DNA from: Minisyncoccota bacterium
GTDB lineage: Bacteria > Patescibacteriota > Minisyncoccia > Phycocordibacterales > PALSA-1337
Length of the DNA: 64,000 bases
Assembly: GCA_041666915.1 (NCBI GenBank)
Contig: JBAYFZ010000001.1
Span: 354,508 to 418,507, forward strand
Direction of reading: 5' to 3'
The position numbers and the translations under genes were made by a program. The stretch's first letter is position 1. Each line of letters begins with the position of its first letter. The notes under the pieces are model-generated. The model was not told the DNA's origin, made no database searches, and saw only the letters and a list, made by a program, of their open reading frames with translations. Below, piece after piece: positions 385 to 60,290 of the stretch.

Positions 385-484
385 GTCATTCCCGCGAAGG
401 CGGGAATCCAGGATTATTACGGATAAATAGTTATCGCTAACCCAATGGTAACACACTGGATTCCCGCCTTCGCGGGAATGACAA
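385..484. repeat. MITE/REP-like palindromic element copy 1 (terminal inverted repeats GTCATTCCCGCGAAGGCGGGAATCCAGGAT ... ATCCTGGATTCCCGCCTTCGCGGGAATGAC)
   Basis: Near-perfect inverted termini flank a ~40 bp AT-rich core, in the intergenic gap between proS and rseP. Confidence 0.8.
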
Positions 485-489
485 CAAAA

Positions 490-1626
490 TTATTTAAACA
501 TCTTAGCAATATCTTTATAAGTTACAACTACCATAAGTATCATAAGGAGAACAAAACCGACAGCATTGACCGCATTGGAATACTTCGGCGGTAGTCTGCG
601 TCTGATAACCCCTTCAATAATAACAAATAAGACTCTTCCGCCATCCAAAGCTGGAAAAGGAATGAGGTTAATAACTCCAAGATTAATGGAGATCAAAGCT
701 GTGATCATAAGTAGATAAGTAAAACCTAGTTCAGCAGCACCGCCCACTATGCCAGCAATACCAATAGGACCAGAAACGTCTGAGAAATTTGCATCACCTT
801 TGAAAATATTTGCAATAAAATTATAAAGACCAACGGCAGTATCACGAATCATTATGAGAGTATAGTGAGCACCTTCATAAATCGCAGAGAAGAAAGAAAG
901 TTTTATATCAACGACACCACTCATGGCAATACCGATAGCATATTTATCTTTTACAATTCCAGCGATTGGTTCTATGGTAGTAGTCGCGAGATTATTGGCA
1001 CGCTTGTAAGTCATGAGAACTGGAGTTCCCTTGCTTGAATTTATTACATCTTGAATACTAGTTATAGAAGAATTTGAAAATGGTTCATCAGATACGACCA
1101 TGCTAGAAAAACTTTCTCCATTACTTCCCTTTATGTCACCGATGACATCTCCAACTTTCAAACCAGCTTTTTCTGCTGGAGAACCGGGAGATACGAGAGT
1201 TATCATTACTCTTTCATTCTTGAAATCAGAAGAATATCTTTCAAAACCTTGAGGATCTGCAGTCACACCAGAAATAAAAACTATAATGTAAAGAACCCAA
1301 GCAAAAATAAAATTAAATAAAACACCAGCAACCAAAACCATAATCTGTTGCCAACCTTTTTTATTAACAAAACTCCTATCTTTATCAGAACCACTAATAG
1401 ATTCCTCATCAGGATTTTCTCCATGAATCTTCACGTAACCACCAAAAGGAATAAGGTTTAGACCATATTTCGTCTCCTTTTTTCCCCAAGACAGAATCCT
1501 TGGACCAAAACCAATCTTGAATTCATCAACCCTGATACCGTTCCATCTAGCAAAAAGGAAATGTCCGAGTTCGTGGACGAAGATGAGGACTGCGAGGACG
1601 AGGAGGAAGATTATGGCGGTTAGCAT
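490..1626 (-). CDS. rseP: RIP site-2 zinc metalloprotease (RseP family) with PDZ domain
   Basis: HELGH zinc motif at the N-terminus, multiple TM segments, a central PDZ-like region and a C-terminal LDGG motif. Confidence 0.85.
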   Translation of the reverse strand: MLTAIIFLLVLAVLIFVHELGHFLFARWNGIRVDEFKIGFGPRILSWGKKETKYGLNLIPFGGYVKIHGENPDEESISGSDKDRSFVNKKGWQQIMVLVAGVLFNFIFAWVLYIIVFISGVTADPQGFERYSSDFKNERVMITLVSPGSPAEKAGLKVGDVIGDIKGSNGESFSSMVVSDEPFSNSSITSIQDVINSSKGTPVLMTYKRANNLATTTIEPIAGIVKDKYAIGIAMSGVVDIKLSFFSAIYEGAHYTLIMIRDTAVGLYNFIANIFKGDANFSDVSGPIGIAGIVGGAAELGFTYLLMITALISINLGVINLIPFPALDGGRVLFVIIEGVIRRRLPPKYSNAVNAVGFVLLMILMVVVTYKDIAKMFK

Positions 1627-1668
1627 AGAGAAATGAATTTCTAATTTTTAATTACTAATTTCTTGCGT

Positions 1669-1793
1669 TGTCATTCCCGCGAAGGCGGGAATCCATGTTT
1701 ACCACATGGTGAATTAATTATTTGTTCGTAATAATCCTGGATTCACCGGTCCATACGACATGATTTTGCTAAATCACCTTCGCGGGAATGACA
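1669..1793. repeat. MITE/REP-like palindromic element copy 2 (right terminus degenerate)
   Basis: The left terminus GTCATTCCCGCGAAGGCGGGAATCCA is intact; the right terminus is partly eroded (CACCTTCGCGGGAATGACA). It shares the flanking motif CTAATTTTTAATTACTAATTTCTTGCGTT with copies 4 and 6. Confidence 0.7.
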
Positions 1794-1801
1794 CAGTACA
1801 A

Positions 1802-2353
1802 TTATCCCAACACTTCCTTCTCTTTTCTATTAAAATGTTCCTCCAACTTTTTATTGAGATCATCAACCAATTTTTGAGTATCGCCTTTCAAACGGAAGAT
1901 TTCATCTTTACCATAACCACCGTCTTTTTCCTTGGCTTGCAAATCCTTGATAATAGTATCGCGATGACCACGAACTTGTTTCTTGGCTTCTTCAAGCTTG
2001 TCCTTGGCCAACTTGGCAACATCTTTACGACGATCTGCCGTGAGCTCTGGGAACATGGCACGGAGACCTTGATCATCTACAACTACTGAAACTCCTAGAT
2101 TGGCGACAGTAATAGCCTTTTCAATATCCTTCGTCTGACCTTTTTCCCAAGGAGAAATACGCAACGTCCTTGCGCCTTCAATAGTGACACTAGCCAACTC
2201 CTTTATACTCATAGGAGCACCGTAAATCTCTACCCTGACTCCATCTAGAATCTGAGGCGATGCTTGACCAGTACGAATCTGAGTAAATTCTTTCTTGAGC
2301 CATTCTTCGGTATTGGCGAGCTGTTTTTTGAACGGATTGAAATCGTAGGCCAT
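1802..2353 (-). CDS. frr: ribosome recycling factor
   Basis: 183 aa; IRTGQASPQILDGVRVEIYG...LASVTIEG...DRRKD pattern typical of Frr. Confidence 0.9.
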   Translation of the reverse strand: MAYDFNPFKKQLANTEEWLKKEFTQIRTGQASPQILDGVRVEIYGAPMSIKELASVTIEGARTLRISPWEKGQTKDIEKAITVANLGVSVVVDDQGLRAMFPELTADRRKDVAKLAKDKLEEAKKQVRGHRDTIIKDLQAKEKDGGYGKDEIFRLKGDTQKLVDDLNKKLEEHFNRKEKEVLG

Positions 2354-2448
2354 AGGTTTAATGATTAATTGATAGTAATTGCATTATAGCATATATCACT
2401 ATTCACTAAATAACTACAACTTTGCACTTTGCATTTTTCACTTTGCAC

Positions 2449-3156
2449 TTAGATATTCAATGCCACATATTCCAATAACATCTTCAACGAAGGCGATCTA
2501 TCACTGACATATTTCCTAGCTGTCTCTGTAGCAATCAAAGATTCCAAATTCCCTGCCACACCTTTTTTCTTATAGACTTCTTCTTGAATTGCATTAAGGA
2601 AATTTATAGCATGTTGCTTGGTCTTTTTTTCTTTTGTTATTTCATCCAAAAGATTTTTGACCATTTCCAATCGCTTGGCAGGATTGAGACTGACAAACTT
2701 CTTTGCGTCAGCAGTGACTTCAGAATCATTACCGGAATTCCCTCCACTCTTTCCACCTTTTCCCTGAATCATTTCAACAAATGAAAGACGCGACTTGACC
2801 GTCGGTAAAAGTAGATGAGACCCCGGGATTATGAGGAAAAAATGAGCATACTCAGCAGGCTCTTCTAATAATTTGAGTAAAGCATTTTGAGCTTCAACAT
2901 TTATATTGTCAGCGGTAATAATAAAAATTTTTTTACCCTCATTTTGTATTGGTCGCATTTCGTGAGCCAATTTCAATTCGCGAGCATCGTCAATAGTAAA
3001 ATTCTCATATCTTTTTTGAAACAAATCAGAATTGCCATGAATTGGTATGGAGTGCTCTTCATTCAAGATAACTACGAGCTGATCCCTGACAGAATCTCCA
3101 CCTATCAAACAATACGCGTGATGAGAAAGTGATTTTATAGAAAAAGAAGGAGACAT
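2449..3156 (-). CDS. holB: DNA polymerase III delta-prime subunit-like clamp-loader protein
   Basis: AQNALLKLLEEP box and TVKSR sensor motif; AAA+ clamp-loader fold; the Walker A region looks weak. Confidence 0.65.
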   Translation of the reverse strand: MSPSFSIKSLSHHAYCLIGGDSVRDQLVVILNEEHSIPIHGNSDLFQKRYENFTIDDARELKLAHEMRPIQNEGKKIFIITADNINVEAQNALLKLLEEPAEYAHFFLIIPGSHLLLPTVKSRLSFVEMIQGKGGKSGGNSGNDSEVTADAKKFVSLNPAKRLEMVKNLLDEITKEKKTKQHAINFLNAIQEEVYKKKGVAGNLESLIATETARKYVSDRSPSLKMLLEYVALNI

Positions 3157-3195
3157 GGGGGTATTATAGCAGAATCAAGGTGCGACCTTGATAAA

Positions 3196-4209
3196 CTACC
3201 TCTTTGAAATCATCGCCTTTTTGTAGACATCCAAATGATCTAGAGCAATGCCAGTTCCCTTCACAACACAAAGCAAAGGCTCATCAGCCAACTGGGCTTT
3301 GACACCAGTGCGACGAAAGACAAGTTCAGGAAGGTTGCGTAACATAGAGGAACCGCCAGTCATTGTAATACCTTGATCAATGATGTCTGATGCCAATTCT
3401 GGAGGAGTCTCTTGAAGAACATCGCGAACAGCCTTGATCATTTCTCGTAAAGGTGTTGCTAGAGCTTTGACTATCTCATTAGTTTTGATCTCAACTGAAC
3501 GTGGTAAACCAGAAATATAATCACGTCCTTTTACCATCATAGAAAGTTCTTGATCTAGAGGCACAGCTGAGCCAATAGTAATTTTTATAATTTCTGCCAT
3601 GTGGTCACCAATAGCAAGATTGAAAGTCTTTTTAATATAATCGGTAATAGCAACATCCATCTTATTACCAGCACATTTGACTGAAGTTGAAGCGACGATG
3701 CCTCCAAGAGAAATAACAGCAACATCGGTAGTACCACCACCAATATCTACAACCATATGACCTTTTGCTTCTTGGATCGGTATGCCAGCACCGATAGCAG
3801 CCAAAACTGGTTCCTTTACAACATAAGCATTCTTGGCACCAGCACGGATGGCGGCTTCTATGACAGCGCGTCTCTCGGTGGAACTGATACTAGCCGGAAC
3901 AGAGACGATCACATCTGGTCTAAATAAAGAAAATTTTCCAAGAGATTTATCAATAAAATATCGCAACATTGCTTCAGTTATGTGGTAATCGGCAATGACT
4001 CCATCTCTCATTGGCCTATAAGCGATGATGTCGTCTGGAGTTCTACCGATCATTTCTTTGGCTTCATTGCCAACTGCCAAAACTCTTTTGTCTATCTGAG
4101 AAACAGCGACTACCGAAGGTTCGTTCATGACTATGCCTTTACCAGGCAAAAAGACCAAAGTATTAGCCGTACCTAGATCAATTCCCAATTTCGGAGAAAA
4201 AATACTCAT
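3196..4209 (-). CDS. mreB: rod shape-determining actin homolog MreB
   Basis: GIDLGTANTLV phosphate-1 motif, DIGGGTTD phosphate-2 motif, 337 aa. Confidence 0.9.
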   Translation of the reverse strand: MSIFSPKLGIDLGTANTLVFLPGKGIVMNEPSVVAVSQIDKRVLAVGNEAKEMIGRTPDDIIAYRPMRDGVIADYHITEAMLRYFIDKSLGKFSLFRPDVIVSVPASISSTERRAVIEAAIRAGAKNAYVVKEPVLAAIGAGIPIQEAKGHMVVDIGGGTTDVAVISLGGIVASTSVKCAGNKMDVAITDYIKKTFNLAIGDHMAEIIKITIGSAVPLDQELSMMVKGRDYISGLPRSVEIKTNEIVKALATPLREMIKAVRDVLQETPPELASDIIDQGITMTGGSSMLRNLPELVFRRTGVKAQLADEPLLCVVKGTGIALDHLDVYKKAMISKR

Positions 4210-4270
4210 AGGGCTGATGTTAGCACAAAATAAATTTCCCGCTAGGTCGGACCTAGCGGGAAATGAGATG

Positions 4271-4960: not shown

Positions 4961-5098
4961 ATTTTTCTCTTTCTAATTCTATTACGTTTCTCCTTCAACG
5001 ATAGAAGGGTTTCGGTAATATTTCAAAGAACTACTTTGATAACAAAAATTTACATCTTAAATAAGATGCTGTCAACCTGATGTCACACATCCGGAAAA

Positions 5099-9483: not shown

Positions 9484-10017
9484 ATGAAAGACATCGTCCA
9501 AAGAGACAACCCAGTCTTACGAGAAACGGCAAAGAATGTGCCTTTGGCTGATATTGGCGGAGAAAAAATCGCTCAAATTATAAAGAATATGAGTGCCTCT
9601 ATGGCATTACAAAAAGATGGTGTCGCTATCGCTGCCCCACAGATAGGTGTAAATCTCCGAATATTCGTTGTCTCTGGCAAACTACTCAAAGAAGCTGATA
9701 AGTCATTCAAAGGTGACGGCGTTACCGACCTAGTCTTCATCAATCCTGAAATAATAAAACTCTCCAAAGAAAAGAAAGATGTTGAAGAAGGTTGCCTATC
9801 AGTCCGTTGGTTGTATGGCAAAGTCCGTAGAGCTGTCCGCACCACCATCACCGCCTACAATGAAAAAGGAGAAAAGATAGAGCGTGGTGCCAGTGGAGTT
9901 TTGGCTCAAGTGTTCCAACACGAGATTGACCATTTGAATGGAGTTCTCTTTATAGATAAAGCAAAGGAAGTTTGGGAGATGACGGAGGAGGAGATAGCAG
10001 AGATGCAGAGGAAGTAA
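9484..10017 (+). CDS. def: peptide deformylase
   Basis: GVAIAAPQIG, EGCLS and QHEIDHLNG motifs. Confidence 0.9.
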   Translation: MKDIVQRDNPVLRETAKNVPLADIGGEKIAQIIKNMSASMALQKDGVAIAAPQIGVNLRIFVVSGKLLKEADKSFKGDGVTDLVFINPEIIKLSKEKKDVEEGCLSVRWLYGKVRRAVRTTITAYNEKGEKIERGASGVLAQVFQHEIDHLNGVLFIDKAKEVWEMTEEEIAEMQRK

Positions 10018-10023
10018 GGACAT

Positions 10024-10160
10024 GTTGTCATTCCCGCTTTTTATGTCATTCCCGCGAAGGCGGGAATCCAGGATAATACCACAATAAATAGCATGTATTT
10101 AAAAACCATTTAACAAACTTTCCATTCGTAATAATCCTGGATTCCCGCCTTCGCGGGAAT
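10024..10160. repeat. MITE/REP-like palindromic element copy 3, inserted between def and fmt
   Basis: Both inverted termini are present, plus an extra partial left terminus (GTCATTCCCGCTTTTTATGTCATTCCCGCGAAGG). The right terminus abuts or overlaps the annotated fmt start. Confidence 0.8.
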
Positions 10161-11076
10161 GACAAAACAAAAAACTATGCCCACCCCCTTCTCCTTCTTC
10201 GGATCCTCACGTTTCTCGGTAATAGTTCTCGAGCAACTTTTTCGTAAAGGATTGATCCCTTCATACATCATAACAACGGTAGACAAACCAATTGGACGAA
10301 AACAAATCATAACAGCCAACGTGGTCAAACAATGGGCCAATGAAAAAAATATTCCTGTTTATGACCCAGCCAAATTGAATCAGGAATTCGTAGATCAATT
10401 GATTAAATTAAATAAAAATACGGACGGTTCAGAAAAATGTCCAGTTTTCCTAGTCGCTTCTTACGGCAAAATAATTCCAAAGGTAATAATAGACTTACCT
10501 TCAAGAAAAACCCTCAACATCCACCCTTCTCTATTACCAAAATATCGTGGACCTTCCCCATTACCTTCGGCAATGTTGGATGACGATAAAAAGACTGGTG
10601 TGACTATCATGAGAATAGATGAGGAGATGGACCACGGCCCAATCGTAGCAAAGAAAGAAGTTGTGGTAACCGAATGGCCTATTTATGAAAAATACGAAGC
10701 AATGATGGCGGACGAAGGAGCAAAATTATTTGCAGAAATATTACCAAAATGGATAGCGGGAGAAATCAAAGAGCAAGAACAGGATCATTCCATTGCTACA
10801 TATACAAAAAAGATTACAAAAGAAGATGGGTTAATTGACCTCTCCGGTGACGCTTATACCAATTTTAGAAAAATCCAAGCCTACCACGAATGGCCAAAAG
10901 CGTATTTCTTCATGAAGCATACCGCCCGTTCGACCGGCTCAGGGCAAGACAAAGAAATCCGTGTAAAAATAACTGAGGCAAGTTTCAGTGATGGTCAATT
11001 GAAAATTCAGAAAGTAATTCCTGAGGGCGCAAAAGAGATGGCATACGAAGACTTCCTTCGTGGTTACAAAAATTGA
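10159..11076 (+). CDS. fmt: methionyl-tRNA formyltransferase
   Basis: Formyltransferase core with the HPSLLPKYRG motif and a C-terminal Fmt domain. The true start may be an internal Met because the first codons lie inside the repeat. Confidence 0.85.
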   Translation: MTKQKTMPTPFSFFGSSRFSVIVLEQLFRKGLIPSYIITTVDKPIGRKQIITANVVKQWANEKNIPVYDPAKLNQEFVDQLIKLNKNTDGSEKCPVFLVASYGKIIPKVIIDLPSRKTLNIHPSLLPKYRGPSPLPSAMLDDDKKTGVTIMRIDEEMDHGPIVAKKEVVVTEWPIYEKYEAMMADEGAKLFAEILPKWIAGEIKEQEQDHSIATYTKKITKEDGLIDLSGDAYTNFRKIQAYHEWPKAYFFMKHTARSTGSGQDKEIRVKITEASFSDGQLKIQKVIPEGAKEMAYEDFLRGYKN

Positions 11077-12068: not shown

Positions 12069-12388
12069 TCCGGAGTAGCTCAGCGGTAGAGCGATCGCCT
12101 GTAGAGTATGCAGCTTTCTGTCGAAAGGCAGATCGAATAACGAGGTGAATTCGGGGAAACCCCAAACGTAATTGTGGGCAATCCCGAGCCGAGCCCGCCA
12201 AATGGTGGGAAGGTGTAGAGACTATCCAATTTTGGAGTAGCTTGAATTATTTATATAATAATTCTTGCGAAGCCCCTCGTCCCTAAACTGTGGCATTGCC
12301 ACGATATGGGAATGATATAGTCCGTACCATTAGTAATAATGGATTAAACGTAAGCGATTGGTCACAGGTTCGAATCCTGTCTCCGGAG
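12069..12388 (+). tRNA. tRNA-Asn(GUU) interrupted in the anticodon loop (between positions 35 and 36) by a group I intron; mature tRNA 72 nt
   Basis: The 5' exon 12069-12102 is TCCGGAGTAGCTCAGCGGTAGAGCGATCGCCTGT. The 3' exon 12351-12388 is TAAGCGATTGGTCACAGGTTCGAATCCTGTCTCCGGAG. Joined, they give a perfect cloverleaf with acceptor TCCGGAG/CTCCGGA, anticodon stem ATCGC/GCGAT, loop CUGUUAA and discriminator G73. Confidence 0.85.
12103..12350 (+). ncRNA. group I self-splicing intron (248 nt) within tRNA-Asn
   Basis: Core elements are recognisable: P-like AATTGTGGGCAA, Q-like AATCCCGAGC, R-like GTAGAGACTATCC, S-like GATATAGTCC. A P9 hairpin CCATTAGTAATAATGG precedes the terminal omega-G at 12350. 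The 5' exon ends in U, which can pair in P1 (CUGU/GCAG). Confidence 0.75.
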
Positions 12389-13933
12389 CAAAGCTGGATG
12401 AAGGGGCGTAATAACGCCCTTTTGTCCTTTCTGGACAAGGGTTTTCTGTGGTTCGAAAAGCTTTTCTGAGTCAATCTTCTCTTGAACACGTTTAGCAATC
12501 ATCTCCACCGATTTCTCCAATGTATAGCTCACTTTTTCGTTGTTAATGACTAAGTTCGAAAAAATCTTCTTCAGAATCATTCGACGTTCCATTGGATTTC
12601 TTTTTTCATAAATCTCTCGGGACCTTCGAGCTATGTCAATAATATCAATGTATCGTTCGAAATATTTAACCTCATCATTCTTGAGTCTCGCAATTTGTGA
12701 TTGGATTCCTTCCTGTTCAGACATTATCTCCGCTTGTTTTGACTCCCAGCGGTCCCTAGTAATCTTCTCGTCTAAGTGATCATCATAAAGTATGTCCAAT
12801 CGCTTCTGTAGGCTGTTATAGCGTTCCTGAAGAGCTTTTAACATATTCTCCTTGTATTCAGATTCGCCTTTATGATCATCACGGATCTTTTGATATAGTT
12901 GCTCAGCTTCGACAGGTGTAATTGCCTCAAATATTCTAAATACAGACAAGATCGAGTTCTCAATTTCTTCTTCTCGAGTCGAATACCTCTGTGAGCAAGT
13001 CTTGTAGTGCTTACATGAGTAATAAATATGACCTTTCTGGACCTCCCCGTAGATTGTACTGCCACATTCTCCACAATGAATCATCTTAGAGAATATATGC
13101 TGACGCCTCTTATAATGTGGCGCACCGTCCCGGACCAAAGCTGTTTGCACTGAGTCAAACAGTTCCTTAGATATTAACGGTTCCTGTTTTCCACCTCTAT
13201 ACAAGACTCCCTTCCAAATCATATCTCCATAGAAAAAAGGATCTTTTAGTATCTCATGTAAACAGGACTTACCAAGCTGACAACCATTTCTTGCTCGTAA
13301 TCCCTCTGAGTATAGCTTGTCACTTAGGGCCATCAATGAATAATTGCCTGTAGCATAATATTCAAAAGCCTTTTTCATGAACGGTCCCCGGACCTCATCT
13401 ATGACGTGTATTTTGTGACCCTTGTCGCCAATAGTCTTATATCCGAGTGGTGGCGTACATGGGAGCCAACCCTGAGCGATTTTCTCCTTCTGACCTTTCT
13501 TCACCTCTTCTGAGAGATTGTTGGTGTAGAAGCGTGCAATAGCTATCTTCATATCCCAGACCAGATTCTCGTGAGCACGGGTATTCTTGTTAACTACTGA
13601 ATTCTCCTTCACAAAGTGCACTTCACGAGCTTCATCTTCCTGAATCCAGTCATTAACTATCGAAGCATCTTTCAAATTACGTGTTAGACGATCTATTTTC
13701 TCACAGAGGATAATATTCACATCATTCTTAACTGTATATTCCAACATCTCGTTAAACACAAGGCGTATTTGCTTGCCACTGGCTGATTCACTGATCCTAA
13801 AAACTTTTGATATTGTAAGGTTCCTTTTACCTGCATATTCCTTCAAGAGCTTTTCTTGTGCATCAAGAGAGTAACCGGTTTCCTCCTGTTCTCGAGATGA
13901 TACACGTGCATATATGACGCAGTCGGTTTTCAT
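12362..13933 (-). CDS. large serine recombinase (resolvase/invertase catalytic domain + recombinase domain + zinc ribbon)
   Basis: N-terminal VIYARVSSREQ catalytic-serine motif and DRLTRN; central recombinase domain; Cys-rich segment CGECGSTIYG...YYSCKHYKTC. The 3' end of the ORF overlaps the 3' exon of tRNA-Asn. Confidence 0.85.
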   Translation of the reverse strand: MKTDCVIYARVSSREQEETGYSLDAQEKLLKEYAGKRNLTISKVFRISESASGKQIRLVFNEMLEYTVKNDVNIILCEKIDRLTRNLKDASIVNDWIQEDEAREVHFVKENSVVNKNTRAHENLVWDMKIAIARFYTNNLSEEVKKGQKEKIAQGWLPCTPPLGYKTIGDKGHKIHVIDEVRGPFMKKAFEYYATGNYSLMALSDKLYSEGLRARNGCQLGKSCLHEILKDPFFYGDMIWKGVLYRGGKQEPLISKELFDSVQTALVRDGAPHYKRRQHIFSKMIHCGECGSTIYGEVQKGHIYYSCKHYKTCSQRYSTREEEIENSILSVFRIFEAITPVEAEQLYQKIRDDHKGESEYKENMLKALQERYNSLQKRLDILYDDHLDEKITRDRWESKQAEIMSEQEGIQSQIARLKNDEVKYFERYIDIIDIARRSREIYEKRNPMERRMILKKIFSNLVINNEKVSYTLEKSVEMIAKRVQEKIDSEKLFEPQKTLVQKGQKGVITPLHPALLRRQDSNL

Positions 13934-14521: not shown

Positions 14522-15021
14522 GATCCCGGGGTTTTGTTTATCCTCATAATCAAACTCGGCGAGTAGATTAAATAACGACGCCAATCCGATAACGTCATTT
14601 TCTTGATTATTTAATTTTGAATTATTTTCGACCATTTGTGTATGATGGTGTGAACGATTTACTCACCATTGACGACCATCATACTAAAACAGCCATTTAC
14701 GTTTAAAATAAAAATTAAATATGGCTTAACTAAGCCAATTATACAAAATAATCCAATACACACTTATTCTTACTCCTATAATATTTTATATTCTTTTCCG
14801 TTGATAAGTAGAACAGGTTTTGATACTATAATCACATATAAGAATACTGACGCCAGAAAGGCCCAGCTGGCGCGCGCCTTCATTAGAAGGAAGAGCGAAT
14901 GGAGGAACTGCCGCCCTCCCAGATCTATCTAAAAAACTTCCTTCAATAAAGGAAGTTTTTTAGTTTAAAACCATTACTTTCTGTTCGACCAATTGGGTAC
15001 AAACTTTAATACAACTAGCAG

Positions 15022-15094
15022 TACCCTCGGAAGGACTCGAACCTTCAACCTTGCCGATAGAAGCGACTTGCTCTGTCCATTGAGCTACGAAGGC
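15022..15094 (-). tRNA. tRNA-Arg(UCU)
   Basis: The reverse complement GCCTTCGTAGCTCAATGGACAGAGCAAGTCGCTTCTATCGGCAAGGTTGAAGGTTCGAGTCCTTCCGAGGGTA folds as a 73-nt cloverleaf with anticodon loop CUUCUAU and T-arm GAAGG-TTCGAGT-CCTTC. Confidence 0.8.
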
Positions 15095-15234: not shown

Positions 15235-15438
15235 TCAGATTAAAGTTAATCTATACCATATTTTTGCTTCAATTTGAGCAACTCTAGTATCGCTAATATT
15301 AAATTTCTTACCCGTAACCTTTTGAGTATGTCTAATCCCGTCAATTACTCCATACCTATACTCAAAGATGGCTGTATGTCTATCATTTAAGTTTAAAAGT
15401 GGTTTATTATTACAATATTTCTGTATCTGCTTTTTCAT
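15235..15438 (-). CDS. small sigma-70 region-4-like HTH protein
   Basis: 67 aa; C-terminal ISDTRVAQIEAKIWYRL resembles sigma-70 region 4.2 (xSxxRVRQIEAKALRKL). Its start overlaps the recombinase stop. Confidence 0.5.
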   Translation of the reverse strand: MKKQIQKYCNNKPLLNLNDRHTAIFEYRYGVIDGIRHTQKVTGKKFNISDTRVAQIEAKIWYRLTLI

Positions 15439-16796
15439 TATATTTTTATATTTTTAACAAAAGGCATAATATTTTCATAAATATTTTCTGGTTTAATAAT
15501 ATACTCAAGATATTGATTGTCATCTGAAAATAAAACAAAATTGCACTGATTAAAAACATTTGTCGGTATAAGGAAAACATCATCTATCAATTCTTTTTTA
15601 CCTAATGTAATACTAACAGCAAAAACTTTATCGTAACTCCTCTTTTCTTCTTCAATGACAAAGATCGTAGACTTCTTACCAGAATTGACTTCATATGAAT
15701 TAACACTATAAGCAAGAGGAAACTTCTTTATTTTAGATTCAGCATCATCTACACTAAAACCCTCTTTCACAAGGAGTTCTCTCATCTCTCTCTCAACAAA
15801 ATTCTGTGCTTTACGTATCATATAAATACCTTTTTTCCATCTCGAAGGTGTGGACCAAAAGAGACGATCTTGAGCCATCCAAAATATTTTCTCATCAATA
15901 ACAGCCGGAAACGCTTTCGGAGCAATGGCCCACTCATTTCGTGGATTTTTTACCTTCTTCTGCTTTAATTTACCTGATGTCTTATTGTAAAGTCTTGTAC
16001 CAGTATAAACTTCATTCCCTAAAATATGACTAACTTTTCCTTTACTCCATACCCCACCATTCGCAGAAGGAATACTCTTCTCATTTAAAATATCGACAAT
16101 ATCACTTGTGGTAAGCCACTTATTTACAAACATATCGAAAATATCTTTCACTACATCTGTAGTCTCGTCATTAAGGGGTGCAAATGTAACGCGTTGATTA
16201 CTAATTTGTTTATGTTCACCTTTTTTAAGTTCACGTATAGGTTTTTTATTCTCATCCAGAAGAAGCCTTACCATACCATAGCAGGCTGTACCACCAGCAG
16301 AATAACCATCTTTTGAAATCTTCATGCAACCGTACCAAACTTTACCACTCAATTGTCGCGAGTATTGTGCGGCCATCCAACGTTCCATTGGCGTAATGAT
16401 ACTATCAGTTATCTCTTGCTCCTCTCTTGGAAATGGCTTACTTGTGTATAGAACTTTCTTACCATGTTGTTCGCAAAGATGTTCGTAATAAGCTGCTTCG
16501 TTTTGGTTTTGGAATCTACCCCAACGAGAAACATCATATACGAGTATGTAATCGAAGTGGGGTGCGTTTGGATTAAGCACCCAATCTTTCATAAGACTTT
16601 GAAAACCTGGACGGTTTGCCGTTAAACCACTTACACCCTCATCAGCAAGATGATCAATAATTTCTCCACCGAATTTTGTAGCAAAACGTGCATGATGATC
16701 TTTTTGGATAGGAACAGAATTTTCTTGTTTATCTTCAGCAGAATGACGGTTATACGTAATTCCTACCCATATTCGTTTTGATTGTAAAAATTGCAT
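15438..16796 (-). CDS. large serine recombinase (second copy, divergent sequence)
   Basis: N-terminal resolvase-like domain (VGITYNRHSAEDKQ, DVSRWGR) and central recombinase domain (GKVWYGC...ERWMAAQYSRQLS). Confidence 0.75.
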   Translation of the reverse strand: MQFLQSKRIWVGITYNRHSAEDKQENSVPIQKDHHARFATKFGGEIIDHLADEGVSGLTANRPGFQSLMKDWVLNPNAPHFDYILVYDVSRWGRFQNQNEAAYYEHLCEQHGKKVLYTSKPFPREEQEITDSIITPMERWMAAQYSRQLSGKVWYGCMKISKDGYSAGGTACYGMVRLLLDENKKPIRELKKGEHKQISNQRVTFAPLNDETTDVVKDIFDMFVNKWLTTSDIVDILNEKSIPSANGGVWSKGKVSHILGNEVYTGTRLYNKTSGKLKQKKVKNPRNEWAIAPKAFPAVIDEKIFWMAQDRLFWSTPSRWKKGIYMIRKAQNFVEREMRELLVKEGFSVDDAESKIKKFPLAYSVNSYEVNSGKKSTIFVIEEEKRSYDKVFAVSITLGKKELIDDVFLIPTNVFNQCNFVLFSDDNQYLEYIIKPENIYENIMPFVKNIKI

Positions 16797-23552: not shown

Positions 23553-24144
23553 TTTAAATCATTTTACAAACACAAAAAGCCCACCACGGGTAGAGGCCGA
23601 AGCCCCTCATATCAGTTTCCCGATATGGCAGATTAAGGCGACCCCATGATGGGTTCTTTGTCCTTAATCTGACTAACTTTTCACCATGCCAGAAATCACT
23701 TATTTCTGGTTTAGGCTACTTATACATATTCAGTTGTATGTTTAGGATACCACTCTATTACGTCCATGCCAATATTCAGCTCTTTAACAATCGTGTAATG
23801 CATGTCTCCCTTCACCACATAATAGTGTATAATAAAGCTATGAAATACGCTTATCTATCCATAATAATTCTTTTAATAATCAGTGGTTTTTATTGGTTTC
23901 AGTTGCGACCAAGCCAAATTAAAAAACATTGTTTTTATACCAGTGCAACATTAAAAGAAAATTTATCGCCTCATGCCGATTTAACTTCTCCAGATAGCTT
24001 TAGTCTCGCCAGCGTAGAAGCACAATCCAATTACCATTCTTGTTTAACCTCGAATGGACTTTAAGGTTGAACTCGAAGAAAAAATGTGATGTAAGTCACT
24101 ATCCACAGTTTTTTTATTTCTATTTGGTTGATATAATGTTGCTC

Positions 24145-29743: not shown

Positions 29744-30096
29744 GTCGACGATAAGTGAGCTGGTTGTCGATACGGCCGAAAGGCAATGTAAATTAGCTCT
29801 CGGGGTTTGTATCCGTCAACGGGAGATACCCCTAAACGAACAGTTGATTTGGTACATCAAAAAAGTCGGCACTTGAGCATAAGCTCAGCCCATCATCGGC
29901 GCAAGCTCGTTAGTTATCTGATCCTGCGAGTAGCACCGGCAGAGGGCACTTTGCCGACACAAAAGAAAGAGTGGCACGATGTGCATGTCTAGCTTGCACG
30001 CCACAGGTTTGGTGGTACTTAGTCTCCACCCGATGAAGTACGCGACTTCATGAGTCAATTCGCCCGGAACCACCACTTTGGTTCCGGGCTTTTTTA
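29744..30096 (+). ncRNA. candidate structured ncRNA of unknown class
   Basis: Promoter TTGACA-16-TAAGAT at 29710-29737. A ~350-nt GC-rich ORF-free region ends in the terminator GCCCGGAACCACCACTTTGGTTCCGGGCTTTTTT. The small ORFs inside (29807-29992 and 29885-30076) look spurious. Confidence 0.4.
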
Positions 30097-30100
30097 TTTC

Positions 30101-30190
30101 CTCATGTCCTTCATAAACAACGACTGATTGTAAATTCCCTACATGTATTCCCTATCTGAGAATATGGTTATAATAATCTCATGTTCGGGG
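30101..30190. repeat. ~90-bp repeat R copy 1 (CTCATxxCTTTCATAAACAA...GTATTCCCTATCTGAGAATRTGGTTATRATAATCTCA)
   Basis: ~85% identical to copies at 32141-32230 and 34367-34455; each follows a rho-independent terminator. Confidence 0.75.
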
Positions 30191-30201
30191 ATGGCATACA
30201 A

Positions 30202-32085: not shown

Positions 32086-32140
32086 GCGTAACCCGCCCGA
32101 ACAGAGAAACCCTCCGTTCACGGCGGGTTTTCTTTTTATA

Positions 32141-32230
32141 TTCTCATCACTTTCATAAACAACAACCGATTGTGCATCCCCTACATGTATTCCCTATCTG
32201 AGAATGTGGTTATGATAATCTCATGTTCAG
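32141..32230. repeat. ~90-bp repeat R copy 2
   Basis: See copy 1. It is preceded by the hairpin CCCGCCCGAACAGAGAAACCCTCCGTTCACGGCGGG+T-tract, itself reused at 38338. Confidence 0.75.
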
Positions 32231-32248
32231 GAAGCATAAGATTGTAAT

Positions 32249-34311: not shown

Positions 34312-34366
34312 ATCCCCCGCCCGAACACGAAGCCCATCGCTTCAGTTCGCGGCGGGTTTCTTTTTT

Positions 34367-34455
34367 CTTCTCATCGCTTTCATAAACAATAACTGATTGT
34401 ACATCCTCTATATGTATTCCCTGTCTGAGAATGTGGTTATGATAATCTCAGGTTC
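34367..34455. repeat. ~90-bp repeat R copy 3
   Basis: See copy 1. Confidence 0.75.
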
Positions 34456-34630
34456 GGAAAGTGTTGCACTTCAGAGTGGAATTTTAGGAGCCAAGTTGAC
34501 AACATTGATTAAAAGATGTAATTTAAGTCTAAATTGCTCTAACAAAATTAAAACGAAGGTAAATTATGAAATCAGGAAGAAACGTCGCACTTGCGAACAA
34601 TGATAGATTTTTTCTCTTCATCGTATTCAA

Positions 34631-38329: not shown

Positions 38330-38500
38330 TATCACAAACCCGCCCGAACAGAGAAACCCTCCGTTCTGGTGGGTTTCTTTTTTTATATAATGAAATCCCC
38401 AAATCAATCACATTTGACTATATATCTATATAATATCATACTGAAACAAGTCAATTTGATATTCACAAAAAACAACAAATAACAAACGGAGGAACATTTA

Positions 38501-43204: not shown

Positions 43205-43307
43205 AAGTTACGTTAGGCGGGACAAGGCAACATCATTAATGTAATGTTGCTTTTTTGTTACCGTGATTCGCTCCACCAGTCGGTAGATGGCGAATTCTCA
43301 GTTTTAA

Positions 43308-43340
43308 TACCCCCTCCCCCCTAGGGGGTATCAAGACTAA
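43308..43340. repeat. CCCCCTCCCCCCTAGGGGGTATCAAGA palindromic repeat (copy A)
   Basis: G/C-run palindrome centred on CTAG; related copies at 47483-47500, 47800-47872 and 53288-53420, all at 3' ends of minus-strand genes. Confidence 0.7.
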
Positions 43341-43741
43341 AGAGATACAGTAAACTCAACTTCAAAAGGATACATACCCATTCCACATGTTCCTGAAAGC
43401 TTACCAACCTTACCCACACCAATATCAATATCAGTAGAACCAGTCTGTGGTAACGCTTTAGAAATATTCATACTTGGAATACGTACGTAAGATGAACAAT
43501 CAAAAGTCCCGTTAGTATTGAACCTAATAACAGTAGGAATGCCTGCCTTTGCAATACTTTTCCTAGGCTGATAACCACCTCTAGCGGTTATTTCAATAAT
43601 CTGTTTTCCATCAATAACAGAAACATTATTTGCATTAGTTGCAACTTGTCCTGAAGTAACCGTATTACCACCTCTCACCAATAACAAAGCTCCTGCAATG
43701 AGGGTAACTGCGACTATAATAGATAAAATGGTTGCTTTCAT
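43337..43741 (-). CDS. secreted cupredoxin-like/metal-binding protein (putative copper-handling accessory)
   Basis: TM/signal anchor, Cys/Met-rich C-terminus (CSSY...GTCGMGMYPF); adjacent to the copper-efflux genes. Confidence 0.4.
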   Translation of the reverse strand: MKATILSIIVAVTLIAGALLLVRGGNTVTSGQVATNANNVSVIDGKQIIEITARGGYQPRKSIAKAGIPTVIRFNTNGTFDCSSYVRIPSMNISKALPQTGSTDIDIGVGKVGKLSGTCGMGMYPFEVEFTVSL

Positions 43742-47469: not shown

Positions 47470-47799
47470 AATGAATACATGGTATACCCCCTAGGGGTAT
47501 CTTGTCAATATTACTAACTGGTGTTATTGATGTCATTGTAAAATTATGCATCACAAAAATCGCAAAACACTATTAAGAAGGTTTTTTACTCAGTAAGAGG
47601 GCACTTTCGCGGGAAGATTACACAATTTATCTCCGTCCGACAGATAGGTCACAACGGACAGGGTTTCCTGCGTATTAAAGATACTAAAAAAGTGACGGAT
47701 TTTTCGTCACTTTTTTATAGTTATATTACAGTTGAAAGGAACTAACCAATAAAAATACTTTTACTTCGCCACCCGCTCAATTAGATAAACACGAACACA

Positions 47800-47872
47800 A
47801 TACCCCCTCCCCCCTAGGGGGTATCAAGACCAAAGAAATGTAATGCACCCCCTCCCCCAGGGGGAGGGGGTC
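47800..47872. repeat. CCCCCTAGGGGG-family palindromic repeat (copy C, compound)
   Basis: ATACCCCCTCCCCCCTAGGGGGTATCAAGACCAAAGAAATG...CCCCCTCCCCCAGGGGGAGGGGG. Confidence 0.7.
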
Positions 47873-53175: not shown

Positions 53176-53287
53176 GTTTACGTTATCTATTTGTTTTTCT
53201 GCTTACTACTATTATCTAAGCTCATATTAACCAAAAAGAGTGTTTTTGCAAGGAATTTAGATGTTCCTCTTCTATTTCCAGATTGAC

Positions 53288-53420
53288 TCCTCCCCCCTAG
53301 GGGGGAGGGGGTGGTTTTCTTACCCAGGAAACCTCGAACGAAGCGACGGCGAGAGCCCGAGGAGGAGGTCATCGTATCTTTCCTAACTTGATACCCCCTA
53401 GGGGGGAGGGGGTATCAAAC
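53288..53420. repeat. CCCCCTAGGGGG-family palindromic repeats (copy D, two palindromes bracketing ~75 bp of GC-rich spacer)
   Basis: CTCCTCCCCCCTAGGGGGGAGGGGG ... ATACCCCTAGGGGGGAGGGGGTATCAAAC. Confidence 0.7.
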
Positions 53421-53452
53421 ATAAAATGTCATGTGAATCTACCAACCCGTCT

Positions 53453-54751: not shown

Positions 54752-54770
54752 GATAGTTATGAAAATTTCT

Positions 54771-54886
54771 AATTACTAATTTTTAATTTCTTGCGTTGTC
54801 ATTCCCGCGAAGGCGGGAATCCAGGATATTACCAAAAAATTCTGTTAGTTGCCTTCATGGATTCCCGCCTTCGCGGGAATGACACA
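54771..54886. repeat. MITE/REP-like palindromic element copy 4, between the hydrogenase small and large subunit genes
   Basis: Both inverted termini plus the shared flank AATTACTAATTTTTAATTTCTTGCGTT. Confidence 0.8.
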
Positions 54887-54890
54887 ACTA

Positions 54891-55373: not shown

Positions 55374-55484
55374 GAAATTGTTGTCATATTATAGCATTTT
55401 TATTAGATATGAGTGTTGCAATTAATTGTTGAACTCGGGTTATCTGTATTTGATTAATTCTAACAATTAGCTACAATCATACAT

Positions 55485-56243: not shown

Positions 56244-56365
56244 AATAAGCTACCCAAACCAGTTATACACGAGAACATCAATCATTCGCGTCGCCACCGA
56301 GCCACGATATACTAGACCCGACAACAATCACTTTGATTCTTCGCTTACTGGTTTTGTTTTTATGC

Positions 56366-57379: not shown

Positions 57380-57463
57380 ATAGTCAATATTTACAACGTA
57401 GATTATCTATAACTCTATTTTCAAAACAAATAATGAAAAAACATAATATGCTATAATTTATAG

Positions 57464-59221
57464 GTGAAGAAATCCCACGACAGTGTTTTTACTATTGGCA
57501 TCGGCGGAGCGGCTGGTGACGGTATCCATGAATCAGGCATCACACTAGGTGCTATCTTGGCCGAACTTGGTTACGAATCATATTTATCATACACTTACCC
57601 TTCACTTATCCGTGGAGGGCACAATTTTGCCCGTCTTTCATTCAGTAAGGAAAAAATATACTCTGACCACGAAGCTTTGGATGTTCTCATCGCTCTCAAC
57701 GAAGAAAGCATCGTGCTTCATCGCAAAGAAATGGCAGACAATTCGGTTGTTTTGGCTGATTCTTTTGAAAAAGATGATTTGGACATACTCAAAGACAATG
57801 CCGTAGTTATACCGATGGACATTACAGTCAAAGAGATGAATGTTTCTCCTATTACCAGAAACTCAATGGCTTTGGGAGCGCTTTGTTACCTACTAGACTT
57901 GGATTTCAAGCTCATGGAAAAAGTCTTAGGTGATGTCTTCAAAAACAAAAAACCAGAAATAAACATCAAACTTGCTGATATAGGTTACGAATTACTCAAA
58001 AGCAAAAATTTCCGACATTCCAAAAAGATTCACCCTAGTGAAGGTAAAAAAGAATTCATAGATGGTAATAGTGCCCTAGCAAAAGGCCTTCTAACAGCTG
58101 GTTTAGATTTCTACATTGGTTACCCAATGACACCAGCTACAAGTATCTTGCAATATTTAGCTACACACCAACACGACAATATTGGACACAATCAAAAGAT
58201 GCGTGTCATTCAACCAGAGAGTGAGCTCTCGGTTATCAATATGGCACTAGGCATGTCTTACGCCGGCAAACGCGTAGCAGTTGGTTCTGCTACTGGAGGT
58301 TTCGCCTTGATGCAAGAAGCTTTTAGTTTCGCTGGTATAGCCGAATTACCTTTGGTAGTAGCTGTCTCCCAAAGACAAGGACCTGCCACAGGACTTCCTA
58401 CTTATTCTAGTCAAACAGATTTGCGATTTGCCATACATGCTGGACATGGAGAATTCCCGAGAATAGTCATCGCCCCCGGAGATCCAGAAGAATCCTTCTA
58501 CCTTGGTGCACAAGCCTTGAATCTGGCTTGGGAATACCAACTACCAGTCATAGTCCTTATGGATAAAATCATTTCCGAACATTCTGCTACGAGTCTTTTG
58601 AAAGCTGAGAATATTAAAATAGAAAAAGGAAACGTCGCAAAAAATACAGATGAAAAATATGGTAGATATGAAATAACAAAAGACGGTATATCTCCTATGG
58701 CTTTTCCTGGCACAGCCAATACTACAGTAAAAGTTACTAGCTATGAACATGACCATGCAGGTATCACCGTAGATGAACCAGAGTTAGCCGAAAAAATGTT
58801 AGATAAAAGGTTTGCTAAATCAGAAACCTTAAAAAAATCTTTAAATCACCACGAGACCGTCAAAGTCTACGGCGATCACTCCAGTGACAATATAGTTGTT
58901 TTCTGGGGTTCAACCAAAGGTCCCGCTTTGGAGTCAGCCAGATATTTGAAAAAACCAGTCAAGTTTGTACAAATTGTTTGGTTAGAACCTTTTGATGTTA
59001 AAAAAGTAAAACAAGAATTATCTGGAGCCAAAAAGATTATTGACGTTGAATGTAATCATGATGGTCAATTATCTGCTTTAATCCGCGAAAAAACTGGCAT
59101 AGAAGTCACAGACAAGATTCTGAAATACGATTCAAGACCTTTTGAACCAGTTGAGTTGGCAGAAAAGATCAATTCATTATGTCATTCCCGCGAAGGCGGG
59201 AATCCAGGATGTAACCAATAA
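57464..59221 (+). CDS. 2-oxoacid:ferredoxin oxidoreductase alpha subunit (gamma-alpha fusion type)
   Basis: N-terminal gamma-like TIGIGGAAGDGI domain then an alpha domain. The last ~15 codons (LCHSREGGNPGCNQ) are supplied by MITE copy 5. Confidence 0.8.
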   Translation: MKKSHDSVFTIGIGGAAGDGIHESGITLGAILAELGYESYLSYTYPSLIRGGHNFARLSFSKEKIYSDHEALDVLIALNEESIVLHRKEMADNSVVLADSFEKDDLDILKDNAVVIPMDITVKEMNVSPITRNSMALGALCYLLDLDFKLMEKVLGDVFKNKKPEINIKLADIGYELLKSKNFRHSKKIHPSEGKKEFIDGNSALAKGLLTAGLDFYIGYPMTPATSILQYLATHQHDNIGHNQKMRVIQPESELSVINMALGMSYAGKRVAVGSATGGFALMQEAFSFAGIAELPLVVAVSQRQGPATGLPTYSSQTDLRFAIHAGHGEFPRIVIAPGDPEESFYLGAQALNLAWEYQLPVIVLMDKIISEHSATSLLKAENIKIEKGNVAKNTDEKYGRYEITKDGISPMAFPGTANTTVKVTSYEHDHAGITVDEPELAEKMLDKRFAKSETLKKSLNHHETVKVYGDHSSDNIVVFWGSTKGPALESARYLKKPVKFVQIVWLEPFDVKKVKQELSGAKKIIDVECNHDGQLSALIREKTGIEVTDKILKYDSRPFEPVELAEKINSLCHSREGGNPGCNQ

Positions 59222-59272
59222 AATTTATCGCCAGTATTCATGGATTCCCGCCTTCGCGGGAATGACACAAAA
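59176..59272. repeat. MITE/REP-like palindromic element copy 5
   Basis: Intact termini; the core CCAGGATGTAACCAATAAAATTTATCGCCAGTATTCATGGATTCC is nearly identical to copy 6. Confidence 0.85.
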
Positions 59273-59286
59273 AACAAAACAACATT

Positions 59287-60072
59287 ATGCCTCTAAACTT
59301 ATCAACAACTTCAAAGATCACTTGGTGCCCGGGTTGTCCAAACTCACAGATTTTAGTTGCTTACAGACAGGCTATAGAAAGTTTGGTCAATTCTGGTTCA
59401 CTCAAAATAGAAAACTTGGTAGCTTGTGCAGGTATCGGTTGCCACGGCAAGATTTCTAATTATTTAAACGTAAATAGCTTCACCGCTCTACACGGTAGAG
59501 TCATTCCAGCCATGACCGGTATCAAATGTGCCAATCCGAATCTAACCGTTATAGGTATGAGTGGAGACGGTGATTCATATTCAGAAGGTTTAGAACATCT
59601 CATCCACGCTGCAAGGCGCAATTCTGATATAAAAATATTTATTCACGATAACCAAGTCTTTGCCCTCACCACTGGTCAAACTTCTGCTATGAGTCCAAAA
59701 GGTTTCAAGAGTAAAACTACCCCTTACGGTAGTATTGATGAACCATTTGAACCTTTCTCTGTATTACTTTCAGCTGGTGCTTCATTCGTAGCCAGAACAT
59801 ATGCCGGAGATATTGCTGGTACAAAGAAAATCGTTGAAGAAGCTATCAAACACAAAGGTTTTTCTTTCGTTGAAATCATCCAACCTTGTATTACCTTCTT
59901 TGACACAAGAGATTACTTCAAAGAAAGGGTCTTCTTGCGCGAAGGCGGTCCTGCCGACAATATTGATACGGCGATCAAGCTTTCTAGAAAAGAAGGAGAG
60001 CGGGTACCACTGGGCATCTTCTATAACGTGGAAAGACCAACGTTTGAGGAGCAACTACTTGGGAATTTCTAA
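59287..60072 (+). CDS. 2-oxoacid:ferredoxin oxidoreductase beta subunit (TPP-binding)
   Basis: WCPGCPNS, IGCHGKI and GDGDSYSEG motifs. Confidence 0.85.
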   Translation: MPLNLSTTSKITWCPGCPNSQILVAYRQAIESLVNSGSLKIENLVACAGIGCHGKISNYLNVNSFTALHGRVIPAMTGIKCANPNLTVIGMSGDGDSYSEGLEHLIHAARRNSDIKIFIHDNQVFALTTGQTSAMSPKGFKSKTTPYGSIDEPFEPFSVLLSAGASFVARTYAGDIAGTKKIVEEAIKHKGFSFVEIIQPCITFFDTRDYFKERVFLREGGPADNIDTAIKLSRKEGERVPLGIFYNVERPTFEEQLLGNF

Positions 60073-60109
60073 TTTTTAATTCCTAATTTCTAAATAATTT
60101 CCAAATTCC

Positions 60110-60290
60110 AATGACTGAATTCCTTAAGATATATAAGTCTTCATCAGAAATTAGTCTTTGTGTCATTCCCGCGAAGGCGGGAATCCAGGATGTAACCAAT
60201 AAAATTTGTCGCCAGTATTCATGGATTCCCGCCTTCGCGGGAATGACAACACAAGAAATTAAAAATTAGTAATTAGAAATTCTCCTAACT
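60110..60290. repeat. MITE/REP-like palindromic element copy 6 with extended AT-rich flanks
   Basis: Intact termini at 60160-60250. The flanks (AATTTTTAATTCCTAATTTC... / ...AAATTAAAAATTAGTAATTAGAAATT) mirror the flanks of copies 2 and 4. Confidence 0.8.

Follow-up and report, generated by a model that had tools for sequence, protein, structure and literature searches.

Head-to-head CGTC-1/SRM-type hairpin dimers at operon junctions in a Patescibacteria genome

The 64,000-nt stretch of DNA analyzed here (the window), from contig JBAYFZ010000001.1 of a Minisyncoccota bacterium, contains six palindromic elements, c1 to c6, located between genes of core operons. A scan for the 30-mer GTCATTCCCGCGAAGGCGGGAATCCAGGAT with up to 3 mismatches found 11 matches in the window, compared with a mean of 0.00 in 100 dinucleotide shuffles, and a search with an 18-nt core returned the identical 11 sites. 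These sites assemble into six elements of ~86 to 123 bp each, and the six-copy palindromic family proposed in a preliminary description of this sequence is therefore real. The flanking genes named in that description also proved correct: NCBIfam identifies proS, rseP, frr, def, fmt, OFOR alpha and beta, and the ADP-forming acetyl-CoA synthetase (acd), and assigns the hydrogenase genes to the delta (small) and alpha subunits of a group-3 NiFe hydrogenase. The elements recur in independent assemblies of this uncultured organism (JGI loci L003 and L205; Logan contigs L002, L206, and L208, which end inside arms), and therefore are not an assembly artefact. The sequence of the source contig that could be read amounts to 82 kb (the window plus 18 kb) of 450,810 bp (ENA assembly ERZ27249449), and a seventh element is found in it ~3.8 kb past the end of the window (L207:17473-17587). 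Together, the seven dimers (14 units) in 82 kb correspond to ~1 dimer per 12 kb.

All seven dimers lie between co-directional genes, mostly no more than 10 nt after the upstream stop codon. Element c1 (385..482, with arms at 385-411 and 456-482) is 7 nt past the rseP stop codon and 21 nt before the proS start codon, with both genes on the minus strand. Element c2 (1670..1792) is 9 nt past the frr stop codon, and has a normal left arm (1670-1696) and a right arm with a long loop (1737-1792). Element c3 (10045..10163), which has 30-nt perfect arms, lies between def (stop codon at 10017) and fmt. Copy 3 had been described as abutting the fmt start, and it does overlap the ATG chosen by the gene caller (10159), which falls within its right arm, but alignment of the protein family favors the ATG at 10178, 14 nt beyond the end of c3, as the likely true start. 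Element c4 (54798..54883) is 7 nt past the stop codon of the gene for the hydrogenase small subunit. Element c5 (59181..59266) is inserted at the end of the OFOR alpha gene, 20 nt before the OFOR beta start codon, and supplies both the end and the stop codon of OFOR alpha, as had been noted. The element-encoded tail (59181..59221, plus strand) consists of 13 codons (CHSREGGNPGCNQ) and the stop codon, rather than the ~15 codons estimated earlier. Element c6 (60162..60247) occupies the spacer between OFOR beta and acd and is identical to c5 at 85/86 positions. This near-identity had been taken as a sign of recent mobility, a reading drawn from that one pair, and local duplication or gene conversion between copies 981 bp apart explains it equally well. 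The seventh element is situated between the nifU stop codon and the start of a ferredoxin gene, 4 to 10 nt from each. The outer end of c1 (TGTCAT, read ATGACA) is a -35-like hexamer, with a 10/12 promoter-like match at window positions 362-389 on the minus strand directed towards proS, and the ends of such elements could create outward-reading promoters.

Each intact arm has the anatomy TGTC-ATTCCCGC-GAAG-GCGGGAAT-CCA, which spans ~27 nt. A single arm forms its own hairpin, in which an unpaired TGTC tag precedes an 8-bp stem of ATTCCCGC and GCGGGAAT closed by a 4-nt GAAG loop and followed by a CCA tail. Alignment of all the arms extends the conserved monomer by a further ~16 nt with the semi-conserved sequence GGATATTACCAATAAAT, giving a monomer of ~45 nt. 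Because the conserved monomer runs ~16 nt past the arm, the "AT-rich core" of the elements is two GGATATTACCAATAAAT tails meeting. The monomers are arranged head-to-head, with their tags pointing outward, in 6/6 window elements and in the seventh, and two facing monomers produce a near-perfect palindrome of ~90 to 120 nt. The perfect 30-bp terminal inverted repeat attributed to the whole family is found only in copy 3, whereas the perfect repeat measures 27 nt for copy 1 and 26 nt for each of copies 4 to 6. Similarly, the core was given as 35 to 70 bp, and the distance between the 27-nt arms is measured here as 32 to 65 nt. Folding of the RNA, which had been suggested as a check, predicts one long hairpin for each element at -56 to -64 kcal/mol, with z-scores of -7 to -12 relative to shuffled sequences (for c1, -63.3 kcal/mol and -11.2).

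By sequence, the elements are head-to-head dimers of a described repetitive extragenic palindromic (REP) hairpin, CGTC-1, which belongs to the same sequence family as the Neisseria dRS3/NTS repeat and the Ssn-related motif (SRM). CGTC-tagged REPs were defined in Proteobacteria, Chlorobi, Bacteroidetes, Spirochaetes, and Thermotogae (Di Nocera, De Gregorio and Rocco, 2013; PMC3733652). In that study, the 8-bp stem of CGTC-1 has A and T in its first two positions, the loop measures 4 nt, the tail reads CCA, and TGTC sometimes replaces CGTC as the tag, with CCTC also accepted. The family occurs at tens to thousands of units per genome, mainly as head-to-head dimers 20 to 100 bp apart that can fold into one long hairpin, is located near the 3' end of the upstream open reading frame (ORF) with occasional coding insertions, and was equated with Neisseria dRS3 and Rickettsia RPE-6. 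The same authors found no tyrosine transposase beside CGTC repeats in any species and saw a possible sign of RNA function in the proximity of REPs to the upstream ORF end. In the window, the accepted TGTC variant of the tag is present on 11/11 intact arms, and CGTC itself is found on one arm of the seventh element. The stem, loop, and CCA-like tail are as published in all intact arms, with an enlarged loop in the right arm of c2, and all six window elements and the seventh are head-to-head dimers with partners 20 to 100 bp apart. The dRS3 repeat was later extended to the 28-nt NTS (CGTCATTCCCGCGMAVGCGGGAATCYRG) and generalized to the degenerate SRM, HGTCWYN(0-2)YYVSBRHN(0-5)WNVSBRGN(0-2)RNCYNB (Chenal et al, 2025; PMC11893778). 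The SRM pattern is matched by 11/11 intact window arms (11/12 arms overall), while 7/11 arms differ from NTS by one mismatch, at the first base, and the four arms ending in CCAT differ by two. The exact 25-mer GTCATTCCCGCGAAGGCGGGAATCC occurs in more than 120 viral or prophage contigs of IMG/VR with GC contents of 0.38 to 0.73 and unrelated flanks, some of which show typical Neisseria mosaic contexts, and therefore the repeat is not lineage-specific.

The window elements share with published CGTC-1 the tag, stem, loop, tail, dimer habit, placement near the end of the upstream ORF, in-frame contribution to a protein, and absence of an adjacent transposase. They differ in their Patescibacteria host, in the ~16-nt conserved tail extension of the monomer, in the structured 27-nt loop insert of one arm subfamily, and in an AT-periodic leader linked to half of the copies. 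In contrast to Neisseria NTS, neither a role in transformation nor clustering near surface-protein genes is evident, and the window repeats are located in housekeeping operons. Rickettsia palindromic elements (RPE) resemble them as palindromic repeats in a reduced genome that add residues by in-frame insertion, as in the OFOR alpha tail and in acd of loci L133 and L135, but the window has a single coding C-terminal extension and its other copies are intergenic. No Rfam family matches the elements. CRISPR, integron attC, and tRNA-like readings were ruled out by anatomy alone, as the repeats are inverted rather than direct and there are no matching core sites. A classical miniature inverted-repeat transposable element (MITE) was also rejected, with no direct repeat flanking any of the six copies and no DDE transposase in the region.

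Comparison with related genomes indicates that the elements entered pre-existing operons. The closest genomes by OFOR beta are Patescibacteria metagenome-assembled genomes (MAGs) labelled Minisyncoccia, Parcubacteria, Paceibacterota, Taylorbacteria, or Zambryskibacteria, with a best identity of 83%, and the hydrogenase/OFOR/acd cluster is syntenic in dozens of relatives. In four of these (L124, L125, L128, and L137), the spacer between the hydrogenase small and large subunit genes is 17 to 55 nt and repeat-free, compared with 139 nt in the window, and the spacer between OFOR beta and acd is 3 to 36 nt and repeat-free, compared with 221 nt. In the same relatives, the OFOR alpha stop codon overlaps the OFOR beta start codon or precedes it by no more than 29 nt with no repeat, whereas the window has 65 nt and 13 extra codons. 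Their OFOR alpha proteins (568 residues in L124, L125, and L128; 586 residues in L137) end in native sequence unrelated to REPs, and those of L124, L125, and L128 stop right after ...INKKL/I. Because the corresponding hydrogenase and OFOR spacers of these relatives are short and free of repeats, the elements are insertions, and the earlier view of a REP- or MITE-like family inserted between operon partners and donating codons is upheld, with CGTC-1 arms in head-to-head dimers as its building blocks. In a single case, the right border of c5 and the empty L128 site possibly share GACAC.

The OFOR junctions are occupied in several other lineages. At the alpha/beta and beta/acd junctions, we observed variant REPs in L126, a collapsed REP in L159 (position 3321), and an SRM-ssn-SRM unit in L175 (2540-3050), where ssn encodes the Ssn nuclease described below. 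The L126 dimer (9906-9990) consists of different arm variants but is found at the same OFOR alpha codon as c5. This repeated occupancy reflects either a hot spot or ancient occupancy. A single in-frame REP also lies inside acd in L133 (3072) and L135 (3887), where it encodes ...CHSRESGNPG... in a variable linker. Collapsed palindromes, GTCATTCCCGCCTTCGCGGGAATGAC, are found at L145:13740, at L159:3321 after OFOR beta, and at L213:9958-9985, and are the product expected when a dimer loses everything between its two direct ATTCCCGC repeats.

The partner of the repeat elsewhere is a small nuclease. SsnA, a 94-residue single-domain GIY-YIG protein, binds the hairpin only as single-stranded DNA (ssDNA) and nicks it a few nucleotides 5' of the tag; it needs sequence as well as structure, does not bind RNA, and copies of the motif typically flank the gene that encodes it (Chenal et al, 2025; PMC11893778). 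That study searched RefSeq reference or representative genomes, and genomes of the Candidate Phyla Radiation (CPR) are absent from its main text. A small GIY-YIG gene is present in six of the viral loci retrieved with the 25-mer, and in 4/6 it starts within ~65 nt of the repeat. The CPR relative L175 has an ssn gene for a 97-residue protein, which carries SRMs on both sides and directly follows OFOR beta, at the junction that c6 occupies in the window. A protein search with L175 Ssn returned 7,956 homologues, and among the 120 listed many of the best are named Paceibacterota or Parcubacteria, while listed homologues from unrelated phyla are 63 to 75% identical. In the CPR loci L209/L210 and L213, ssn is placed between head-to-head dimers or beside a collapsed palindrome. 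At metagenomic ssn loci (GC 0.29 to 0.69), an SRM was found within 400 nt in 58/80 cases, usually with one SRM 30 to 60 nt upstream and one 3 to 20 nt downstream with tags outward, and several of these loci have arms identical to those of the window. Since both CPR relatives and metagenomic loci have ssn enclosed by the same inverted arms, the window dimers look like ssn-less derivatives of an SRM-ssn-SRM unit. The match to the NTS/Ssn system thus extends from the arm, which is NTS except for its first base, to the inward-pointing flanking arms around a gene for a 96- to 106-residue single-domain GIY-YIG protein in CPR relatives, with both nuclease (~65 to 80% identity) and hairpin conserved across very different GC contents.

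Several features are linked to particular copies and indicate what is copied. The extended AT-rich flanks reported for some copies are real and occur only next to elements: a 7-nt-periodic AT motif is present at four places in the window which, each counted on both strands, give 8 matches compared with 0.08 in shuffles, and always adjoins a dimer. At 1633..1669, the motif (NNNAATT repeated four times) and TCTTGCGTT directly abut the c2 tag, in the interval from this element to the rseP start codon (1626). At 54752..54797, on the minus strand, it forms a leader between c4 and the start codon of the hydrogenase large subunit gene (54751). Another leader, at 60248..60293 on the plus strand, lies between c6 and the acd start codon (60294), and a further copy of the motif at 60061..60091 overlaps the OFOR beta stop codon, in the orientation opposite to that of the copy to the right of c6. 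At 3/4 of the places, the motif is fused directly to an arm, with TTTCTTGYGTT running straight into GTCATT. A promoter reading of this motif was set aside, as it lacks a convincing sigma-70 match. The c4 and c6 leaders are identical at 48/52 positions and run through the start codons of two unrelated genes, which suggests that dimer and leader were copied as one cassette. The spacers of relatives at these two junctions are unrelated in sequence, and their c4 junction lacks the AT-periodic leader. Short purine-rich periodic repeats (GTGAATAGTGAATAG...) occur on the tag side of single REPs in the phage-like contigs L022, L077, L080, L091, L095, L098, and L118, with an AGGA-type ribosome-binding site and a start codon ~10 to 30 nt after the REP, and are a parallel to the AT-periodic motif of the window.

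Loop inserts distinguish another subgroup of arms. The right arm of c2 is not decayed but interrupted by 27 inserted nt (1750-1776), within which lies the mini-hairpin TGATTT-TGCT-AAATCA, and the insert recurs in one arm of the seventh element with a compensatory C-G/T-A change, while the other arm of that element is the variant CGTCATCCCCGCGAAAGCGGGGATCC. Whole dimers rather than single arms therefore appear as the copied unit, as seen from the 85/86 identity of c5 and c6, the insert shared by c2 and the seventh element, and the 48/52 identity of the c4 and c6 leaders. The 14-mer of the mini-hairpin, GATTTAGCAAAATC, occurs in these long-loop arms (window 1750-1776; L207:17531-17557) and in 8 copies in 20.8 kb of L141, another Paceibacterota MAG. 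There, the loop that holds it belongs to an unrelated GC-rich hairpin repeat (CTCGAGGCC...GGCCTCGAG) from a family with a 13-nt period, such that the loop module is shared with the window arms and the stems differ. A half-site, GTCATTCCCGC, at 10027..10037 (plus strand), 7 nt upstream of c3, is a partial duplication on the tag side. Tag-side half-sites were found at 16/121 REP instances in other genomes compared with 1/126 control windows, and arrays of one to three units of GTCATTCCCGC plus 7 to 10 nt directly precede a full REP on its tag side in, for example, L006, L041, L081, L123, L224, L231, L235, and L259. These arrays may be the footprint of nick-associated slippage, on the side where SsnA reportedly cuts. 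Small ORF calls over elements (52 residues, L207:9818-9976; 61 residues, L207:17405-17590) are repeat-derived, as are the peptides HSREGGNPG and VIPAKAGIQ, the latter of which we take to be a motif of spurious database ORFs.

We consider it probable, at roughly 0.7, that the elements are Ssn-dependent, non-autonomous CGTC-1/SRM dimers that inserted into operon spacers and are mostly tolerated passengers. In this model, non-autonomous selfish repeats would have entered core operons of a Patescibacteria (Parcubacteria) lineage at their short intergenic spacers, usually landing no more than 10 nt after the upstream stop codon and, in three cases, accompanied by the AT-periodic leader found today ahead of the downstream start codon. 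Both the spread of the repeats and the conservation of their sequence would depend on an Ssn-type single-domain GIY-YIG nuclease that binds the hairpin only in ssDNA and nicks a few nucleotides 5' of the tag, and the dimers would be ssn-less, MITE-like derivatives of the SRM-ssn-SRM unit. The arm sequence is conserved across phyla and SsnA requires sequence and structure without binding RNA, which points to a constraint at the level of DNA. Where transcribed, the elements are predicted to form hairpins of -56 to -64 kcal/mol inside polycistronic mRNAs without acting as intrinsic terminators, and they appear to have remodelled the C terminus of one protein, OFOR alpha, and several 5' leaders. 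An extension of this model, which we regard as speculative and rather doubtful, holds that the copied unit in these Parcubacteria is a ~140-nt intercistronic cassette of REP dimer and AT-periodic leader that replaces the native stop-to-start spacer and supplies core operons with a downstream 5' leader and an Ssn-cleavable ssDNA mark. If the organism relies on taking up DNA, such marks could also restrict the recombination of incoming single strands across essential operons.

Several observations weigh against the model of Ssn-dependent dimers. The 82 kb of source sequence were searched for ssn by regex, by tblastn with six Ssn proteins, and with a hidden Markov model (HMM) built from 120 homologues, which recovered L175 as a positive control at 3e-53, and none of the three found an ssn gene. 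The source contig has no Ssn among the best 120 of the 7,956 homologues, no listed homologue of DUF3326, a neighbor of ssn in CPR relatives, is on it, and a metagenome scan with CPR Ssn returned no contig of the source species. Two Ssn proteins, P0008 and P0010, from ERZ27249449 and JGI 3300037810, are on other contigs and were judged to belong to other CPR species, as GC content, SRM variant, and assembly behavior differ. No target-site duplication, proposed earlier as a check, or other transposition footprint is visible at the six copies. The published work on Ssn describes ssDNA cleavage and an effect on transformation only (PMC11893778), not the copying of repeats to new sites. The dimer shared with L126 suggests that the OFOR alpha copy may be ancient rather than a recent insertion. 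Finally, no element is present in the 44 kb from 10.2 to 54.8 kb, which include an integrated island, and this gap fits old inactive repeats as well as it fits selection.

The absence of copies from this interval and of ssn from the 82 kb therefore keeps open a possible, though clearly less probable, explanation in which the same CGTC-1/SRM dimers are fossils: the lineage has lost Ssn, and the immobile repeats persist since their deletion from tight operon junctions is rarely neutral. This explanation accommodates the lack of ssn on the source contig among the listed homologues, the empty 44-kb stretch with its island and accessory genes, the L126 dimer as an old shared insertion with different arm variants, and the collapsed palindromes of L145, L159, and L213 as routes of decay. 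Against it, the arms are nearly perfect and 11/12 match the SRM pattern, c5 and c6 agree at 85/86 positions, the c4 and c6 leaders agree at 48/52 despite lying beside unrelated genes, the sites are empty in four equally distant relatives, and the ssn search covered 82 kb of the 450,810-bp source contig. We think it unlikely that the elements are instead selected as RNA, with hairpins that shield the upstream cistron from 3' exonucleases or are cut by RNase III to uncouple cistrons, which would make them regulators rather than passengers. From the predicted long, perfect duplex, a role as mRNA stabilizer or RNase III substrate is plausible, and REPs are mRNA stabilizers in E. coli. The folds are very stable (z-scores of -7 to -12), the leader reaches the downstream start codon in three copies, and all seven copies are between co-directional genes and usually no more than 10 nt from the upstream stop codon, the placement taken as a hint of RNA function (PMC3733652). 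However, the operons of relatives manage with spacers of 0 to 55 nt and no hairpin, the dimer core is flipped relative to the leader in c4 compared with c6, and conservation across phyla of arm sequence, not pairing alone, suggests a DNA-binding protein such as SsnA.

Two further possibilities have far less in their favor. Mobilization by RAYT, an IS200-like tyrosine transposase, as for the REPINs of Pseudomonas and enterobacteria, is very improbable even though the architecture matches: in both cases, a short spacer separates two inverted REP hairpins, and the units are scattered through intergenic DNA. REPINs are likewise inverted REP doublets that replicate as non-autonomous units and have a partner gene flanked by repeats (Bertels and Rainey, 2011; PMC3116915), but their tag is GTAG rather than (C/T)GTC and their partner is an HUH tyrosine transposase, whereas the gene between such arms elsewhere is a GIY-YIG nuclease. 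Consistent with the absence of tyrosine transposases beside CGTC repeats in all species surveyed (PMC3733652), the gene tables of the 82 kb contain no Y1_Tnp domain among called genes, and tblastn, HMM, and Pfam tables of called genes gave no ssn, RAYT, or DDE transposase there. The suggestion that the elements are terminators or attenuators between operon genes, made in the preliminary description, has equally little probability. The hairpins are GC-rich, very stable, and intergenic, but no T-run follows any element on either strand, the flanks being A/C-rich or mixed, and a terminator scan that does call other T-run hairpins in the same regions called none of the elements. Termination between subunits of a single enzyme, as in the hydrogenase and OFOR, would also be harmful, and read-through of these elements is therefore expected.

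The remainder of the window has other repeats and mobile features. A probable integrated element without any REP dimer occupies ~12300-38000, with large serine recombinases at 12362-13933 and 15438-16796 around a tRNA-Arg gene (15021-15094), and also carries ParB, a terminase small subunit, AbiEii, a SIR2-like gene, and a DUF87 ATPase, a set that includes defense genes. Inside this putative island, an Rfam match to LOOT RNA at 23592-23717 on the minus strand scores 78.6 bits compared with a gathering score of 46.4. A 101-nt repeat is present three times (30092-30192, 32134-32234, and 34361-34461; 85 to 88% identical), each copy following the T-rich end of a hairpin. These repeats contain the box TGTGGTTATGATAAT, which by eye resembles an extended -10, and may provide the island with recurrent promoters or operators. 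A 52-nt hairpin, AACCCGCC...GGCGGGTT, followed by a T-run is found in two copies (32090-32141 and 38337-38388). C/G-rich palindromes built on CCCCCTAGGGGG lie at 43306-43346, 47799-47871, 53287-53311, and 53390-53430, of which the copy at 53287-53311 was called terminator-like.

The hairpin family and its partner enzyme have been described before, and what is new here is the host phylum, which the two defining papers do not discuss, the operon-internal positions, and some of the structural variants. The elements extend the host range of the dRS3/NTS-type hairpin to ultra-small Patescibacteria genomes, in which nearly every base codes, and by association that of the Ssn system as well. The 25-nt hairpin is unchanged over a GC range of 0.30 to 0.73 and the ~95-residue nuclease is 65 to 80% identical across phyla, which argues for frequent horizontal spread of the pair. 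For annotation and assembly, the repeats give rise to peptides and small ORF calls derived from their sequence, and to Logan contigs that end within them. Chenal et al proposed ssDNA tools, for which the CPR Ssn enzymes would be compact candidates. In the genomes that carry them, such repeats appear to be tolerated inside essential operons, where they can rewrite the C terminus of a protein and several 5' leaders.

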